IMG/VR virus record: IMGVR_UViG_2713896902_000006
Origin: a virus
Taxonomy: Duplodnaviria; Heunggongvirae; Uroviricota; Caudoviricetes
Length of the DNA: 34,781 nucleotides
Reading direction: 5' to 3' (one strand)
Shown one piece after another: positions 7,816-32,613 of this stretch. The stretch's first letter is position 1, and every line of letters starts with the position of its first letter. A program made the position numbers and the translations under genes. The notes under the pieces are model-generated. The model saw only the letters and a list, made by a program, of their open reading frames with translations, was not told where the DNA came from and did not search any database.

Positions 7816-8124
7816 TTACAAACGACTACCTGAAATAACACGTTGGTTGATTTCGTTAATGCGATCCTGTGCACGTGCCATCTCGTTACTGTGGGCCATG
7901 GCGATCTGCAGCAACTGGATGCCTGGTGCGAAACGCCCGTTTTCTAGTTTCAGAGCCAACCCTTCTTCAATGAGCGTGTTAAGTGCCCGGTTGATGTTTG
8001 CCGGTGATTCGTGCAGTGCAACCGCTAGTTCCCCGTTAGAAACACCGTTCAAAGCGTGGCCACGTAAGGCCTTAAGAACGCGCAAAATACGGGTACCTGA
8101 GCTTGATGTATTTGGTTTATTCAT
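7816..8124 (-). CDS. winged-helix DNA-binding protein (IclR-like N-terminal HTH)
   Basis: 102 aa; RILRVLKALRGHALNGVSNGELAVALHESPANINRALNTLIEEGL resembles a winged HTH; AAGGAGG RBS; ATGA overlap with the Ner-like gene. Confidence 0.45.
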   Translation of the reverse strand: MNKPNTSSSGTRILRVLKALRGHALNGVSNGELAVALHESPANINRALNTLIEEGLALKLENGRFAPGIQLLQIAMAHSNEMARAQDRINEINQRVISGSRL

Positions 8125-8345
8125 GACGCCTCCTTAAGGATACCGGGGGTAACTTCTTTACCTATTGCAACCGATAGATCTCGCAAAATCCGATAAGTCA
8201 AACGACCGCGAGGTAGTTCACTTTTACCAGCCCAGCGACTGACTGCCTGGGTGACTGTTCGTGGTTCATAGCCCGCGTTAAGCGCGAACTGGCGCAAGCT
8301 ACTGCCTCGTTCAACCAGCCGTGCCCGAACTTGTTGTTTGTTCAT
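8121..8345 (-). CDS. ner: Ner-like DNA-binding protein (Nlp/Ner family)
   Basis: About 74 aa; HTH-like LRQFALNAGYEPRTVTQAVSRW; first gene of the early operon, divergent from the repressor; ATG 8345 preferred over GTG 8351. Confidence 0.6.
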   Translation of the reverse strand: MNKQQVRARLVERGSSLRQFALNAGYEPRTVTQAVSRWAGKSELPRGRLTYRILRDLSVAIGKEVTPGILKEAS

Positions 8346-8433
8346 ATGCACCGTGTTCCTGTTAGGTTATGATGTACTCTATTGGGTCTATTGTACACAC
8401 CCAAATGAGTGTGTCAAATTGAGATATGTTCAA
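8346..8433. promoter_or_regulatory. divergent early promoter/operator region between ner-like and repressor genes
   Basis: 88-bp AT-rich spacer between divergent starts; direct repeat CAAATGAGT at 8402..8410 and 8431..8439 (second copy overlaps the repressor ATG). Confidence 0.4.
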
Positions 8434-8841
8434 ATGAGTACAAAAGAGAGATTGCGTGAAGTGATGGATGCTAATGGCATGACAATAAAGGCATTATCTG
8501 ACTTATCAAAAATTCCATATCGCTCACTTCAAAACTATTTGCGTGGAGAGAGAGAACCAAACGCAGAGGCTCTTGTTGCGCTAAGTACCCATTTGGGTGT
8601 ATCGATCGATTGGCTACTTACCGGTAAAGAACATATTCCATCTAAAGAAATTGTTGCTGTACCAACACAACATCAATTCAGCCCGTCAGACCTTAAAATG
8701 CTTGAACTTCTAAACCAGTTAGATCCTGAGGTTCGGCGAGATCTCATGCGAGGCGCTGAAGAAAAACAGCGTGTGATTGAGATGGAAAAACAACTGAAGG
8801 AATTATCCGCAACGATTGAGCGGTTAAAAAATGTGGGTTAA
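8434..8841 (+). CDS. phage repressor, XRE-family HTH
   Basis: 135 aa from ATG 8434; HTH TIKALSDLSKIPYRSLQNYLRGEREP...LVALSTHLGVSIDWLL; divergent from the early operon; AT-rich codon usage. Confidence 0.7.
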   Translation: MSTKERLREVMDANGMTIKALSDLSKIPYRSLQNYLRGEREPNAEALVALSTHLGVSIDWLLTGKEHIPSKEIVAVPTQHQFSPSDLKMLELLNQLDPEVRRDLMRGAEEKQRVIEMEKQLKELSATIERLKNVG

Positions 8842-8911
8842 TGTGTTCCTAACGAGAACATATAGCAGAAATTATTTGCCATTAAGCAATAAAAAATAAG
8901 GTGGATAGCCA

Positions 8912-9919
8912 ATGTCTGAGCAGACCATTGAAGTTAAACACGTTGTAGTTCACATTTTAGACAAACAACAAAATGGAGACGCTTCTGAGAGATTGAGTCC
9001 TGAAGAAGGTCTAGTTACTGAAGCCTCTCAGCGCCTTATAAACGATATTTGTGCAAAATATGCAGGACGCACAGGTAAAGGTTATGGCTATTTTGAAGGC
9101 GATACGGATAACTATCCTATGGAACGAATGGCTGGGGACTTTCTCGAAGGTGTTGATGATTTCTACCAAAGTTCCTGCCGAATGATGCATCACCTGACGG
9201 AACGTTCTCAGCGAGAAAACATGGCTACTGGTGGTTATGTTCTTTTTGCAAATATCGTGATAGGACACAATGAACACCTGTTGATAGCTATTGTAAGCGC
9301 TACCATTGGGTCCACTGTCACAGATGATTTTAACATCCAAGATAGTACCTACCTTGATATTGCTAAGCTGCGTATGGCTGGGCGCATTGACTTAACCGCG
9401 TGGGAAAGTGGCGCAGAGCGCTATATCAGTTTTCTTAAGGGGCAAGGTAATGTTTCAAACTATTTTAAACAGTTCCTCGGCTGTAATGATGTCTTAATCG
9501 CCAAACGAGAGTCTGAAAAGTTACGTGACGTTTTAAAAGCATTTGCGGCAGAGAAAGGACTTGACGGCGCTGAAAAAGATGCATTTCTTAAGAGTGCGTT
9601 TGAACACTTACATGCACTAAGTAAGGCTGGTGAACCACTTAGTCTTGAAACCCTTGTTAATGCCATTTGGCCCCAGGCTCCCGAGGAGTTATCTGGTAAA
9701 CTTGCTGCTGAAGAGTTGGAGTTATCGGATGGCTTCGTTCCTGATGGTCGAGTCATTCGGGCTCTGGTATCTTTTAAAGGCAAGTCTAAATATTGGGAAC
9801 TTAAGTTTGACCGGGAAGGGAAAACTGAAGGCTATATTGATTATGATCCGGAAACAAATATTATCACCCTACGTAATGTACCTGAAGAATTTAGGGAAAT
9901 GTGGATGACTGAGGTTTAA
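8912..9919 (+). CDS. YejK/NdpA-family nucleoid-associated protein paralogue
   Basis: 335 aa, the same length as E. coli YejK; shared blocks recalled from YejK: GG(Y/F)VLF, YLDI, (G/A)RIDLT.WE, RY(I/L).FLKG, and a C-terminal block ending DP.T..(I/L)T(L/I). AAGGTGG RBS. Confidence 0.7.
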   Translation: MSEQTIEVKHVVVHILDKQQNGDASERLSPEEGLVTEASQRLINDICAKYAGRTGKGYGYFEGDTDNYPMERMAGDFLEGVDDFYQSSCRMMHHLTERSQRENMATGGYVLFANIVIGHNEHLLIAIVSATIGSTVTDDFNIQDSTYLDIAKLRMAGRIDLTAWESGAERYISFLKGQGNVSNYFKQFLGCNDVLIAKRESEKLRDVLKAFAAEKGLDGAEKDAFLKSAFEHLHALSKAGEPLSLETLVNAIWPQAPEELSGKLAAEELELSDGFVPDGRVIRALVSFKGKSKYWELKFDREGKTEGYIDYDPETNIITLRNVPEEFREMWMTEV

Positions 9920-9921
9920 TC

Positions 9922-11127
9922 GTGGCGATTTCATTTGAGATGCTGACAGCTCTGTATCGTCGTATGGAATTCCAAGAGGGGTTTCGTGTCGGTTCGCTGT
10001 TGCTCTTAGATCAGTCCGATTGTGATCTGGTTGATACTTTGCTTGATGATCCTCGTGAATATGGTCTTTCTATTGATACAGGCACTATCGCTCCAGGTAA
10101 CACGATCATCCTACGTGTGACGTCACCACGGAGTGGACTGGGACTTGTGTTTTCCACCCATGAAAAATTGCTAAATGCTCCAAAGCATCAGTGCCTTGAG
10201 CCAGCTAATTACTTCATCCTAGAAACAAAATTTCGTAATGATGATGAAGATATCCCCGTTTTCATCAGCAACTACCGGAAGATTCTCGAGTTCGTTAACC
10301 TGCTAAAAGAGGCCGCGGCCTACTTTGATAACTCAACTTGTCAGTTAGTTTTTCTGAAAAAAGAAGTTATCAAGCTATTACCGCACTTCGCTGCAGAAAA
10401 TGTACAAAATTTGCAAAGGGAGTATCTTGATAACCTTATAGCTTGTTTCAATGATGATACCCATAAGGATCAGAAGCTAGATATTCTGATTGAAAGTATC
10501 CAAGCAGTTAGTGATGGAATTGATTCACCTCTAGTATTCGCTTATTTACTGGACAATATTCAGCGTCTGCATGAAAAGTTTCTGAAAGGGTATCGTATCT
10601 ACTCTTCTGGATTCTCTTATGACAAAGTAATGGATCAACTGCGTGCTGCAAAAGTCGAAGAAATGGGTAAAATCCACAAAGCGTTTTCAGATATCCAGAA
10701 CCATATACTTGGCATTCCTGTTGCCTCTGTTATCGTAGCTACCCAATTCAAAGTGGCTACGAAATGGTCAGGCCAAGGGATAACAAACACAATAATTCTT
10801 CTGGGATGCATTTTTGCTGCAACGTTAATCTGGCTGGCACTTTCGAACCAGATGCAATCTATAAAGGCCTTAGGCGAAGAAATTGAATACAAAGAAAAAC
10901 AGATTAATAAGGAATATTCCTTCATTAAAGATGACGTGGCTGGTGTATTTAGCAGTATTTCTGCGCGACTAGACACGCAGAAACGTACGTTCTGGATTAT
11001 ACGTGGTGTTCTAGTTATGGGAATTATTACCGCTATCACTGTTTATTTTTGGTACACAAAACCAGCCCTTGACTTCATGCAGTACTTGATTCACTGCATG
11101 AAGTCTTACTATTCGGTCAAAAGTTGA
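9922..11127 (+). CDS. hypothetical protein with two C-terminal transmembrane helices (partner of the NdpA-like gene)
   Basis: GTG start 2 nt after the upstream stop with GAGG RBS; 401 aa; hydrophobic segments ITNTIILLGCIFAATLIWLALS and FWIIRGVLVMGIITAITVYFWY near the C-terminus; very AT-rich. Confidence 0.6.
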   Translation: MAISFEMLTALYRRMEFQEGFRVGSLLLLDQSDCDLVDTLLDDPREYGLSIDTGTIAPGNTIILRVTSPRSGLGLVFSTHEKLLNAPKHQCLEPANYFILETKFRNDDEDIPVFISNYRKILEFVNLLKEAAAYFDNSTCQLVFLKKEVIKLLPHFAAENVQNLQREYLDNLIACFNDDTHKDQKLDILIESIQAVSDGIDSPLVFAYLLDNIQRLHEKFLKGYRIYSSGFSYDKVMDQLRAAKVEEMGKIHKAFSDIQNHILGIPVASVIVATQFKVATKWSGQGITNTIILLGCIFAATLIWLALSNQMQSIKALGEEIEYKEKQINKEYSFIKDDVAGVFSSISARLDTQKRTFWIIRGVLVMGIITAITVYFWYTKPALDFMQYLIHCMKSYYSVKS

Positions 11128-11887
11128 GGATAATGAGTTCCTTCTTGCGACTGGATTTGCCAGTGATCTTGAGGTTGTAGCTGATATCAACCGACTGAAT
11201 ATTTAGACCGTTGAATGCCTGCCGCATTTCCGGGATATCGTTCACCGATATAATCATATTCCCTTTGATCCTGCGTGCTAAATCTGCCATATGATCATAA
11301 TTTTCTAGTCCGAACTCCACACCATAACCTTCCGTTCCCCAGTATGGAGGGTCACAGTAGAACAACGTATGCGGGCGATCATATCGTTCTATGCACTGTT
11401 GCCAGTCCATGTGTTCTATGACCGTTCTGGAAAGCCGCAGGTGTGCCGCTGACAGTTCATCTTCAATACGCAGCAGGTTGAAGCGTGGCGGGGATATGGT
11501 GGAGGTACCAAAGCTGTGCTCCGCCACCTTGCCTCCAAACGCCTGCTTCTGAAGGTAGTAGAACCGTGCTGCACGCTGGATATCCGTCAGTGTTTCTTCC
11601 GGGGTGATCTGCAGCCATTTGTAGATCTGCCGGCTGACCAGCGCCCATTTGAACTGGCGTACAAATTCTTCCAGATGATGTTTTACCACCCGATACAGGT
11701 TCACCAGCTCACCGTTGATATCATTAATGACTTCGATCTTGCCGGGTACCTTAAGAAAATAGAGCGCTGCTGCCCCACAAAACGGCTCCACATAACATTC
11801 ATGCGCCGGAAACAGCGGCAGGATGTGTTTTGCAAGGCGGCGTTTGCCACCAATCCATGGAACGATGGGTAATGTCTGCATTTTCAT
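11117..11887 (-). CDS. dam: DNA N6-adenine methyltransferase, Dam-like (orphan)
   Basis: DPPYW catalytic motif and EPFCGAAA SAM-binding-like motif; 256 aa; no adjacent restriction endonuclease; 3' end overlaps the convergent cassette gene by 11 bp. Confidence 0.8.
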   Translation of the reverse strand: MKMQTLPIVPWIGGKRRLAKHILPLFPAHECYVEPFCGAAALYFLKVPGKIEVINDINGELVNLYRVVKHHLEEFVRQFKWALVSRQIYKWLQITPEETLTDIQRAARFYYLQKQAFGGKVAEHSFGTSTISPPRFNLLRIEDELSAAHLRLSRTVIEHMDWQQCIERYDRPHTLFYCDPPYWGTEGYGVEFGLENYDHMADLARRIKGNMIISVNDIPEMRQAFNGLNIQSVDISYNLKITGKSSRKKELIILNF

Positions 11888-11934
11888 AATCTGTAAGCCT
11901 TTTACAATTATAAAAAATATGGCAGGCTAGTCTG

Positions 11935-11946
11935 GTCTCGCGAGAC
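11935..11946. promoter_or_regulatory. perfect 12-bp palindrome GTCTCGCGAGAC in the divergent Dam / late-operon control region
   Basis: Read directly; lies between the Dam start (11887) and holin start (12135), next to an AT-rich stretch. Confidence 0.3.
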
Positions 11947-11992
11947 TGACTGAACCTTGGTCGGCTCACAGCGCATTCCTGTGGGGCGATGG

Positions 11993-12030
11993 CCAGCCCG
12001 GTGTTCGGGTACCGGGCTGGTCGTTCTTTC
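11993..12030 (+). terminator. stem-loop (10-bp perfect stem CCAGCCCGGT/ACCGGGCTGG, 8-nt loop) followed by a U-rich tract; possible attenuator upstream of the late operon
   Basis: Stem arms at 11993..12002 and 12011..12020, then TCGTTCTTTC; function not established. Confidence 0.3.
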
Positions 12031-12134
12031 AAAGCCATCATGCAGTGCACGTTTACATCTTCACTATTAACGCTGTTTAAAATCCGTATCCCGCCACATT
12101 TGTGATGCTGTCTCCACCAAACGAGGAGACACAC

Positions 12135-29586: not shown

Positions 29587-30728
29587 ACAGTACTGCGCAA
29601 GCCACATCAGCGTTAACCGGCGTCAGCGATGTGCTGACGCCGGTATTCACTCTGTGGTATCTGCAGAAAAACATCACCTCTGATATCGCGCCTTATGTCA
29701 CCCGTGTGGTCTGGAGCGATAACATCAAAAATGAGTCCGATACCATTGAGGTGGAGCTGGACGACACCGATGGCCGCTGGCTGGATAAGTGGTATCCGGG
29801 CAAGGGTGACACGCTGACGCTGAAAATGGGTTATCAGGGCGAGAAACTGCTGTCCTGCGGTACATTCTCAATAGACGAGATCGAAGTGAGTTCGCCCGCG
29901 TCCGTTGTCGCTATCCGTGGGGTGGCTACCTCGGTTAACAGTGCTCTGCGGACTAAATCCAGCCGTGGTTTTGAGAACACCACGCTGGCAGCTGTTGCGG
30001 GGCGGATTGCCAGAAAGCACCGGCTGAAACTGGTGGGCAGCATTGAGTCCATCAGAATCGACCGGGTGACCCAGTATGCTGAAACCGACGTGGGTTTTCT
30101 GCGCCGGCTGGCCAGCGAGTATGGTTATGCAGTGAAAGTGGTCAGTGACCAGCTGATTTTTTCTCATCTGGCCACACTTCGCAGTCAGGAGCCGGTCAGG
30201 CAGTTAAAACCGCAGGATGTGGCCTGCTTTTCCCTGCGTGACACCATCAACCGGGTCTATAAATCTGCAAAGGTAAAACACCAGAAAAGCAGCAGTAAAA
30301 AACTGATCGTCTACGAAGCTGATGGTGGTACCCGTGAAAGCGACAAAAAGCTCAAAGGCGGTAAGGTTACCAGCGCTGACTCACTTAAAGTTAACAGCCG
30401 CGTCAGCGACCCGGACAGTGCCCGGATTAAAGCGGATTCAGCACTGGCCAAACATAACGAATACCAGCAGAACGGCTCCCTGACGCTGACGGGAACGCCT
30501 CAACTGACAGCAGGCAACAAAATTGAACTGGTGGGCTTTGGACAGTTATCCGGTCCATGGCTGATAATCACTGCCCGCCATGCGTTTGAGCGTAACAGCG
30601 GCTACACCACAGAGCTGGAAGTGGCACGGGGGCCAGTCACAAGAGGGAAAAAACAAAAAACTCAGAAACTCACGGTTTATCACCCGGATGGCAGTACATC
30701 GACGGTGATTAAGGAGAAGAAAAAATGA
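29574..30728 (+). CDS. tail protein D (P2 gpD-like)
   Basis: 384 aa, matching the gpD size class; position U-X-D. Confidence 0.7.
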   Translation: MAEINSTAQATSALTGVSDVLTPVFTLWYLQKNITSDIAPYVTRVVWSDNIKNESDTIEVELDDTDGRWLDKWYPGKGDTLTLKMGYQGEKLLSCGTFSIDEIEVSSPASVVAIRGVATSVNSALRTKSSRGFENTTLAAVAGRIARKHRLKLVGSIESIRIDRVTQYAETDVGFLRRLASEYGYAVKVVSDQLIFSHLATLRSQEPVRQLKPQDVACFSLRDTINRVYKSAKVKHQKSSSKKLIVYEADGGTRESDKKLKGGKVTSADSLKVNSRVSDPDSARIKADSALAKHNEYQQNGSLTLTGTPQLTAGNKIELVGFGQLSGPWLIITARHAFERNSGYTTELEVARGPVTRGKKQKTQKLTVYHPDGSTSTVIKEKKK

Positions 30729-31237
30729 CTGGTGTCACCCGTCAGGTCGGTACGGTCAGTGCCGTTGATGCCGACAGGGTTCAGGCCCGCGTTCGTCTGC
30801 CTGAATGCGATAATCTGCGCACAAACTGGCTTAACGTGCTACAGCGCAATACCCAGGATAACAAGGATTACTGGCTCCCTGACGTGGGGGAGCAGGTTGA
30901 GGTGCTGCTCGATGCCAACGGCGAGGATGGTGTTATTCTGGGCGCGGTGTACTCAGACGTCGATAAACCGCCGTTCAGTGATAAAAACGTCCGGGGCACG
31001 AAGTACGCTGATGGCGCGGAGTTCAGTTATGACCGCGCGACCCATACGCTGACGGTCAAAGGAGGTATCGAGCATGTGGTGATCGAGGTTGCAGTGGGTA
31101 TTAGTCTGAAAGGGAAAACCATTGATTTGACAGCTGACACTATCATGGTGAACGGCAATCTTGAAATCAAAGGGAGTACCCATGCGACTGGTAACATATT
31201 TGCAGATGGACAGAATTCCAATCATCACTCTCACTAA
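30725..31237 (+). CDS. baseplate assembly protein V (spike, P2 gpV-like)
   Basis: 170 aa; conserved block WLPDVGEQVEVL comparable to the P2 gpV region; ATGA overlap with the D-like gene. Confidence 0.7.
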   Translation: MTGVTRQVGTVSAVDADRVQARVRLPECDNLRTNWLNVLQRNTQDNKDYWLPDVGEQVEVLLDANGEDGVILGAVYSDVDKPPFSDKNVRGTKYADGAEFSYDRATHTLTVKGGIEHVVIEVAVGISLKGKTIDLTADTIMVNGNLEIKGSTHATGNIFADGQNSNHHSH

Positions 31238-31318: not shown

Positions 31319-32194
31319 ATGCGGTTATCAAGATCCTTATGTAAAGTAGTTGGCGATGTCATTGCTAACTCAGGCTCTCATGCAGCTTTAGATACGTTAT
31401 TTCTTACTTCGGGAGCACCAGGAAACCCTCCGGCAGGATCTCATAGTACAAAATGGAAAGACTGGTTATTTCTTGCAGGGCAAGATCCAGATACAGATAG
31501 TCTGGCAGTTCTGGGCGGAGTAATTGAGGAGTTTATGGATTTACCTCCAAAAGAAGGTACTCCCGAATATGCAGAATGGAAGGAAAAACGAGACAGAATT
31601 GAAGCTGTGTTACAAGAGAATGGACTTAGATATTATCGTTTTGGTCGAGTGTTGCCTGAAGGCCACATCCCGTCACACAATATGGATTACCCAGAGACCA
31701 TAATTACTTATCAACAGCCAGTAATGCCAGAAAAAGTTGAGAACTTACTGGAAAGGCTGGTCAAAGGCTTACAGCGAGCAATGCATCCACTTACTCATAG
31801 GCGAAAAGGAAGCCAGTCATTATCTTTTAGCAATGAATATGACGTGCAAGACCTTCTCCATGCATTGCTCAGACCATGGGTTCAGGACATCCGCCCAGAA
31901 GAGTTTACTCCAAGTTACGCTGGTTCAAGTACTCGAATGGATTTTTTGTTACCTGCGCATAAATTAGTACTGGAAACCAAAATTGTTCGTGATCGTTCTC
32001 ATGCAAAGAAAATCGGCGATGAACTTATTATCGATATAGAGCATTATCGTCAGCACTCTGATTGCAAAAATCTCTGGTGTGTCATCTACGATCCGAACCA
32101 GTTTATTACTAATTCTGAGGGGCTGAAATCTGATCTTGAGGGGAAGAGAGTTTCTAAAGACGGAGAACTTATCGTCAAGGTTTTCGTAATTTAA
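31319..32194 (+). CDS. AT-rich moron ORF; protein with C-terminal PD-(D/E)xK-like nuclease motif pattern, function unknown
   Basis: 291 aa; inserted between V and W, which are adjacent in P2; flanked by 81-bp and 71-bp AT-rich non-coding spacers; C-terminal E (NEYDVQDLL), D (RMDFLL), ExK (VLETKIV) pattern. Confidence 0.6.
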   Translation: MRLSRSLCKVVGDVIANSGSHAALDTLFLTSGAPGNPPAGSHSTKWKDWLFLAGQDPDTDSLAVLGGVIEEFMDLPPKEGTPEYAEWKEKRDRIEAVLQENGLRYYRFGRVLPEGHIPSHNMDYPETIITYQQPVMPEKVENLLERLVKGLQRAMHPLTHRRKGSQSLSFSNEYDVQDLLHALLRPWVQDIRPEEFTPSYAGSSTRMDFLLPAHKLVLETKIVRDRSHAKKIGDELIIDIEHYRQHSDCKNLWCVIYDPNQFITNSEGLKSDLEGKRVSKDGELIVKVFVI

Positions 32195-32265: not shown

Positions 32266-32613
32266 ATGAAAACGACCTCAGTATTCTGGCAACCGGCTCT
32301 GCAGGCTCCCGGCGAAATCGTCCGGGGGCTGGATGATATCCAGCAGTCCATCCAGATCATCCTGCGGACTCCCCGCGGCAGCGACCCGCATCGCCCAGAG
32401 TTCGGCAGCAATCTGCACCTTTATATCGACTGGCCTGTCGACCGGGCCATTCCGCATGTGGTTCGCGAATCCGTCGATGCCATCAGGCGCTGGGAACCCC
32501 GCTGCCAGCTTATGTCGGTTAAACCCGCCGTCGACGGCGAACATCTTACGCTCCGGGTGAGCTGGAAAGGCTCAGACGGACAACCCCGTACTCAGGAACT
32601 GCTATGGCGCTGA
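32266..32613 (+). CDS. baseplate assembly protein W (P2 gpW-like)
   Basis: 115 aa; ILRTPRGS and WEPR blocks as in gpW-type proteins; followed by an overlapping J-like gene. Confidence 0.75.
   Translation: MKTTSVFWQPALQAPGEIVRGLDDIQQSIQIILRTPRGSDPHRPEFGSNLHLYIDWPVDRAIPHVVRESVDAIRRWEPRCQLMSVKPAVDGEHLTLRVSWKGSDGQPRTQELLWR

Follow-up and report, generated by a model that had tools for sequence, protein, structure and literature searches.

The window analysed here, a stretch of 34,781 nt of viral DNA (IMG/VR record IMGVR_UViG_2713896902_000006; Caudoviricetes), is essentially a Mu-like transposable prophage of Escherichia coli, and downstream of its repressor gene it carries a cassette of two genes, namely open reading frame (ORF) 1, encoding a protein of the NA37/YejK family, and ORF2, encoding a membrane partner. 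The evidence makes it likely that the two genes form an abortive-infection system of the DS-1 / type II PANGU kind, which the prophage holds as accessory cargo within its immunity region, and the ORF1-ORF2 pair is rated as a divergent, prophage-borne member of a kind that already has a name. An initial annotation, made from the sequence alone, had proposed a defence module in the immunity region in which a DNA-associated sensor is paired with a membrane effector in an abortive logic, and this proposal is supported by the match to DS-1 and type II PANGU. The same annotation had recognised no named system in the pair, a statement that is now superseded.

The product of ORF1 is a full-length NA37 protein, matching PF04245 over profile positions 1-324 of 325 (E = 1e-80, 272.1 bits against a cut-off of 24.6), and it is collinear from end to end with the solved YejK structure 9be2 (E = 6.8e-30), in agreement with the YejK likeness and the NA37 match that had been expected of it. 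It also matched phrog_3767 (E = 7e-117). Against the NCBIfam YejK equivalog NF001557 it scored 186.2 bits and thus did not reach the cut-off of 341, indicating that ORF1 is related to the housekeeping YejK in the manner of a paralogue and is not its orthologue. The identical full-length ORF1 protein was present on at least 1,000 public contigs from E. coli, Salmonella, Klebsiella and other Enterobacterales genera. Within the same protein cluster, a truncated form of the NA37 protein of 266 amino acids (aa) was observed on 428 contigs of Salmonella Typhi.

For ORF2, an acidic N-terminal domain and a hydrophobic C-terminal module were distinguished. The N-terminal domain (aa 1-255) has a net charge of -10 and an isoelectric point of 5.1, its acidity is shared by 24 of 24 aligned family members (net charge -2 to -14), and the AlphaFold2 model of ORF2 reached a predicted local distance difference test score of about 90 over aa 1-212. 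Hydrophobic segments were located at aa 260-280, 285-311 and 356-378, with Kyte-Doolittle peaks of 1.62, 2.33 and 1.95, respectively. The two C-terminal transmembrane helices read earlier from the sequence correspond to the strong segments at aa 285-311 and 356-378, between which lies an amphipathic helical stretch; their number may be too low, since the segment at aa 260-280 is weaker yet highly conserved, and counting it would give three membrane segments rather than two. The most conserved motif of the family in this module is SDIQNxILGIPVAxV(I/V)VATQ. ORF2 matched phrog_5023 (E = 2e-142), Pfam contained no family for it, and a profile of the ORF2 partner family found no match among PDB sequences. 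Two candidate identities were rejected. One was a CorA-type channel (CorA/Mrs2 Mg2+ channels, including the CorA effectors of type III CRISPR systems), as a significant structural match together with the pore motif GMN was not obtained. The other was Kiwa (KwaA/KwaB), for which PADLOC gave only a weak match to KwaA (E = 8.1e-5; aa 262-394, the hydrophobic region), its sole match for either protein, the partner being an NA37 protein and not KwaB (DUF4868).

The two genes are separated by 2 nt between the ORF1 stop and the ORF2 GTG, a gap that suggests translational coupling, and in nearly all homologous loci their counterparts likewise adjoin or overlap. Conservation of ORF2 residues 2-6, ahead of the first internal Met, among homologues supports the GTG start. 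The coordinates given initially for two tightly coupled, co-oriented genes after the repressor (stop at 9919 and GTG at 9922, plus strand) proved exact. Antisense ORFs also occur within the cassette (e.g., 10635-11039, minus strand), and the plus-strand genes are the ones kept as proteins across phyla.

Both proteins are related to DS-1, represented in NCBIfam (release June 2026) by models NF053868 and NF053869 with equivalog cut-offs of 330 and 315 bits, respectively. ORF1 matched the DS1_1 nucleoid-associated anti-phage protein (E = 1.4e-17, 63.7 bits) and ORF2 the DS1_2 anti-phage protein (E = 3e-21, 75.9 bits). In BLASTP comparisons with the sequences from the tables of PMC13092281, ORF1 showed 23% identity to DS-1A (E = 8e-9) and ORF2 showed 23% identity to DS-1B over 302 aa (E = 6e-10), and alignment of a profile of 24 ORF2 relatives with DS-1B by hhalign gave a probability of 95.6% (E = 1.3e-8, 268 columns). 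DS-1 is system 1 of the DefensePredictor study (Science 2026, PMC13092281), an E. coli operon in which the NA37 protein comes first, DS-1A (WP_000355468.1, 391 aa; 220602-221777) being followed 2 nt later by DS-1B (WP_000150292.1, 404 aa; 221780-222994). Cloned with its native promoter, DS-1 protects MG1655, with -log10 efficiency of plating values of 7.6 on Bas1, 2.7 on Bas26, 1.7 on Bas3 and T3, and about 1 on T5 and T7; no mechanism is given in that study (PMC13092281).

A mechanistic frame is offered by type II PANGU (bioRxiv 10.64898/2026.04.06.716658), in which Pag2A, a YejK-like nucleoid-associated protein (NAP), is paired with the transmembrane effector Pag2B, whose N-terminal part is an acidic DNA-mimic (DMK) domain. 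In the PANGU-Ecu system of that preprint, both genes are required, no construct was toxic, whether it held the single genes or the pair, protection is abortive, and T4 denA (EndoII) mutants escape. Moreover, Pag2A-GFP departs from the nucleoid upon T4 infection, and Pag2A binds the N-domain of Pag2B with a dissociation constant of 19 nM, the NAP activating and not neutralising the effector, while the mode of activation and the action of Pag2B are left open by the preprint. These observations bear on the idea that the cassette stabilises the prophage through addiction, as a toxin-antitoxin-like module with ORF2 as a membrane toxin restrained by ORF1, as a tightly coupled, mobile and low-GC two-gene operon with the membrane protein second might suggest. 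Given that the PANGU genes are non-toxic singly or paired and that the NAP activates its effector, that 335 and 401 aa are far larger than typical type II toxin-antitoxin components, and that such a module would leave the validated anti-phage phenotype of DS-1 unexplained, this idea is hardly credible.

A profile search of 1.84 billion representatives returned 1,272 relatives of ORF2 (E up to 1e-3), and a scan of one genome per species yielded 80 loci, distributed over alpha-, beta- and gammaproteobacteria and two metagenome-assembled genomes (MAGs) from other phyla. The NA37 gene lay directly upstream of the partner and on the same strand in 76 of the 80 loci; of the other four, three hold a truncated partner and one lies at the edge of a contig. 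The identities of both genes to the window pair co-varied across 73 loci (Pearson r = 0.96, Spearman rho = 0.63). Genes common with this prophage family were found in six loci only (L003-L005, L009, L012 and L016) and none in about 70 of the 80, and the pair is also present in the unrelated Sinorhizobium phage phi2LM21 (p68/p67). The GC content of the pair is usually lower than that of its surroundings (in Halomonas, 0.42 vs 0.62). Integrases, antiterminator Q and transposases are found among the 119 nearest-neighbour ORFs, and adjoining defence genes comprise type III restriction endonucleases (REases; L033 and L017), Hachiman HamB (L051) and a type I methylase (L058); ZorA, SduA, PtuA and AbiJ also appear in this raw, uncontrolled list of neighbours. 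Co-occurrence outside the prophage, which the initial annotation had put up for testing, was therefore observed, and several loci placed the pair close to defence genes. It is a mobile accessory unit, not a part of the phage core.

The truncated partner was observed in Cupriavidus (L074, L075 and L077; match at 8001-8606) as a 208-aa ORF that holds the C-terminal membrane half only, corresponding to aa 191-392 of the partner at 44% identity, and no NA37 gene lies nearby. Either the system has decayed in these loci, or the membrane module stands on its own there. In addition, related Mu-like prophages of betaproteobacteria carry a pair of this kind in the equivalent position at 37-45% identity, namely two prophage copies in the chromosome of Jeongeupia wiesaeckerbachi (L012 and L016) and one in a Chitinimonas MAG (L009), which suggests that this type of phage and the cassette have been associated anciently or repeatedly.

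Within E. coli, the cassette is rare. It was detected in 19 of 5,426 complete genomes, whereas the gene for the Dam-type methylase of the prophage was detected in 556, so that 19 of the 556 genomes with a related prophage Dam gene have the cassette. Conservation of the pair only as phage core, which the initial annotation had named as refuting its reading, thus fails on two counts, because the cassette occurs in 19 of the 556 Dam-bearing genomes and the pair is common in unrelated loci. Similarity to cassette-less related prophages stops at 8860/8861, 20 nt beyond the repressor stop, and resumes at 11136 (EcPF16), 11176 (ST131 strain 5506) or 11196 (R4), showing that the cassette contributes only about 50 nt upstream of the ORF1 ATG and ends shortly after the ORF2 stop, inside the 3' end of the Dam gene. 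With a GC content of 41.6% (0.35-0.39 at third codon positions) versus 55.1% for the remaining window, it is the lowest-GC 2.2-kb stretch in the window. The AT-richness noted by the initial annotation was therefore right in direction, but its 27-38% GC was too low as an average, and only 24% of the 60-nt windows of the cassette lie at or below 38% GC. The repressor gene is as low in GC (41.4%) as the cassette. No direct or inverted repeats that would explain the insertion were found flanking the cassette, and a megablast search against phage genomes returned matches to the repressor region only and none to the cassette.

The slot between the repressor and Dam genes is occupied differently in related prophages, being empty in the ST131 strain 5506 prophage and holding a gene for a 175-aa protein in EcPF16 and a pair encoding 297 and 139 aa in R4, with no Pfam match for any of these occupants. 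It spans 8862-11135 in the window, 7587-8114 in L002, 2373-3663 in L083 and 4832-4947 in L084. This slot is a variable cargo site of the prophage family, and its other occupants are candidate lysogen-expressed or defence genes. A second variable slot was observed between the Dam and holin genes (9176-9742 in L002, 4674-5996 in L083, 5903-7225 in L084 and about 11888-12100 in the window); here EcPF16 encodes a DUF2441 protein, three ORFs of small or medium size are present in R4 and ST131, and the window has almost nothing.

The absence of the cassette from most related prophages and the empty slot in ST131 indicate that it is dispensable for the phage cycle, which argues against a role of ORF1 in the element's own biology, i.e., as a nucleoid protein that silences or times prophage genes or aids transposition, with ORF2 as an accessory membrane protein. 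Such a role would suit the position of the cassette in a regulatory region beside the repressor and the general dependence of Mu-type phages on host nucleoid proteins, and it has a precedent in NdpA2 of the Pseudomonas aeruginosa integrative and conjugative element PAPI-1, an NA37 protein reported to regulate transfer genes (PMC8565334). It is nevertheless improbable here, as the NA37 gene is tied to its membrane partner in 76 of the 80 loci, mostly unrelated to this phage, and as ORF1 and ORF2 are both homologous to a validated defence pair. Superinfection exclusion, or a block of injection at the inner membrane (Sie/Imm-like) without cell death or DNA-damage sensing, was considered in the same light and appears very improbable. 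An injection blocker needs no strictly coupled nucleoid protein, the homologous PANGU-Ecu needs both genes, acts abortively and is escaped by T4 denA mutants, and the pair also lies in chromosomal defence neighbourhoods without genes of this phage; these points outweigh the facts that ORF2 is a membrane protein in the immunity region, the classic site of exclusion genes, and that some databases label it 'phage-related membrane protein'. All three alternatives, including the addiction module, are disfavoured because the cassette is dispensable, the coupling of the NAP to its partner is strict in unrelated contexts, and the published behaviour of the homologues points elsewhere.

Regarding expression, a consensus scan between the repressor gene and ORF1 revealed no terminator-like site and no strong promoter, although such scans are crude, and the sole nearby promoter-like match (9/12) lies inside the repressor gene. 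The simplest reading is that ORF1 and ORF2 would be read through from the repressor promoter, as in a cI-rexA-rexB-like immunity operon. We infer both the expression of the window copy in the lysogen and its phenotype.

Under the abortive-infection reading, the pair would be transcribed in the lysogen together with the repressor or by read-through, and translation of ORF2 would be coupled to that of ORF1, as the gene anatomy suggests. Judging from homology and sequence features, ORF1 would reside on the chromosome, and ORF2 would be held in the inner membrane in an inactive state, its acidic N-domain facing the cytoplasm. Once a lytic phage destroys the host chromosome, ORF1 would lose its DNA platform and bind the acidic N-domain of ORF2, in line with the Pag2A/Pag2B data of PANGU-Ecu. 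Binding would then activate the membrane module of ORF2, and the infected cell would be arrested or killed before progeny release, the action of the effector being perhaps, as a guess, to compromise the membrane. A Mu-type transposable phage needs the host chromosome as a replication target and need not degrade it. Induction of the carrier phage, which replicates by transposition into an intact chromosome, would plausibly not trip the sensor; because the carrier keeps the chromosome intact, its own alarm should stay silent, and the cargo should therefore be cheap to carry.

A more far-reaching version of this reading can be formulated, although taken as a whole it is rather unlikely. According to it, the subfamily of the cassette, the first to be seen within the immunity operon of a transposable phage, would work in the manner of rexAB; oligomers of ORF2 would make up a gated channel similar to CorA, opened by the freed nucleoid protein; the need of Mu-like phages for an intact host chromosome would account for their association with the pair, which extends from E. 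coli to Chitinimonas and Jeongeupia; and the system would serve as a 'chromosome-integrity alarm' that kills DNA-degrading competitors and is never tripped by its carrier.

Several observations weigh against the assignment to the DS-1 / type II PANGU kind. The scores of ORF1 and ORF2 both lie far under the DS-1 equivalog cut-offs, the validated DS-1 proteins share only about 23% identity with them, and PADLOC 2023 did not recognise the pair. DS-1A bears an N-terminal zinc ribbon (CxxC...CxxC) and its NA37 domain begins at residue 42, whereas in ORF1 the domain begins at residue 12 without a Cys motif, and the protein is shorter (335 vs 391 aa). Kinship with PANGU-Ecu was judged by architecture, and fold searches gave no confident relative of the ORF2 effector. 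Furthermore, the acidity of the ORF2 N-domain is modest (-10 over 255 aa), its DNA-mimic role being only proposed, co-transcription with the repressor is deduced from signals missing in simple consensus scans, and the phenotype ascribed to the window cassette rests on distant homologues.

The prophage setting of the cassette is summarised in the table below. For the repressor gene, the longest ORF is 8338-8841 (TTG at 8338), and the RefSeq start maps to 8434; in the RefSeq annotation of strain M-17, a 135-aa helix-turn-helix (HTH) protein is placed at the position matching the repressor. Both the early lytic genes and a strong promoter on the minus strand (8417-8390) run divergently from this gene. 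On the other side of the cassette, the Dam gene is convergent with ORF2, overlapping its 3' end by 11 nt, and the methylase is outside the ORF1-ORF2 system. An Rfam scan of the window gave no match.

Table. Features of the Mu-like prophage and its two-gene cassette (positions in the window)
Feature	Coordinates	Strand	Basis or remark
AAA/ExeA MuB-like ATPase, Gam, Mor			leftward early genes
DDE transposase	6890-5121	-	leftward early gene
HTH protein, DUF3102 protein			leftward early genes
Ner-like gene	8351-8121	-	leftward early gene
cI-type HTH repressor, upstream gene of the putative operon	8434..8841	+	Pfam HTH_3 5.9e-12, Phage_CI_repr 2.5e-6
Cassette-specific DNA (moron), variable slot between repressor and Dam	8862..11135	+	similarity breaks against cassette-less prophages; GC
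Shine-Dalgarno sequence of ORF1, AAGGTGG	8898..8904	+	read from sequence; 7-nt spacer to ATG 8912
ORF1, 335 aa, ATG 8912, TAA 9917-9919; proposed sensor (DS-1A / Pag2A-like)	8912..9919	+	
Ribosome-binding site of ORF2, GAGG, within the ORF1 end, about 7 nt before GTG	9911..9914	+	sequence read
ORF2, 401 aa, GTG 9922, TGA 11125-11127 (DS-1B / Pag2B-like)	9922..11127	+	
ORF2 N-terminal soluble domain (aa 1-255), acidic alpha/beta domain and helices; proposed ORF1 docking ('DNA-mimic') domain	9922..10686	+	
ORF2 membrane module (aa 260-378), proposed effector part	10699..11055	+	
Dam-type N6-adenine methylase, right flank of the slot	11117..11887	-	PF02086 E 2.5e-27
Holin, SLT lysin, terminase, DUF935 portal, head and tail genes			rightward genes after Dam

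Two further observations were made in the window. A perfect 13-nt inverted repeat lies at 11071-11105 (GACTTCATGCAGT, 9 nt, ACTGCATGAAGTC), in the final 60 nt of ORF2 and 12 nt past the Dam stop on the opposite strand; a T-run follows it on neither strand, and it may form a transcript-end hairpin for the convergent ORF2 and Dam genes. In addition, a second low-GC island (GC 0.43-0.44) at 31319-32194 (plus strand), between a baseplate V-like gene (30725-31237) and a gp25/W gene (32266-32613), contains an ORF of 291 aa whose C-terminal domain is REase_DpnII-MboI (PF18742, E = 3e-47). This ORF and the Dam-type methylase could together constitute a split restriction-modification pair or else another defence moron.

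The sensing of nucleoid loss through a YejK-like protein, described in 2025-2026, is hereby placed on a common enterobacterial prophage, at a position where expression in every lysogen would be expected. The prophage thus offers a natural genetic system for asking what the membrane effector does and how a nucleoid protein switches it on.

Among the known systems compared, E. coli YejK (NdpA; PDB 9be2), the housekeeping nucleoid-associated protein, belongs to the same family as ORF1, has the same length and is collinear with it throughout; ORF1 differs in being prophage-encoded and paired with a membrane partner. With DS-1, the cassette shares a collinear two-gene operon in the same order, a second protein of about 400 aa whose C-terminal part is hydrophobic, and a 2-nt gap between the genes, whereas the hydrophobic helices of ORF2 are much stronger and better conserved than a simple scan shows in DS-1B. 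Type II PANGU likewise joins in one bicistron a YejK-like NAP and an effector whose N-domain is acidic and whose C-terminal region is transmembrane, and it occurs in Pseudomonadota and is linked to defence genes; the word 'prophage' is absent from the main text of that preprint, whereas the window copy lies in a prophage immunity region. In position and logic only, the cassette also resembles lambda cI-rexA-rexB, where a two-gene exclusion module is co-oriented with and downstream of the repressor. Lambda rexAB combines a cytoplasmic sensor with a membrane effector and has an abortive outcome. No sequence relationship to rexAB was seen, and the trigger proposed for the cassette is the loss of nucleoid DNA, not a replication or recombination intermediate.

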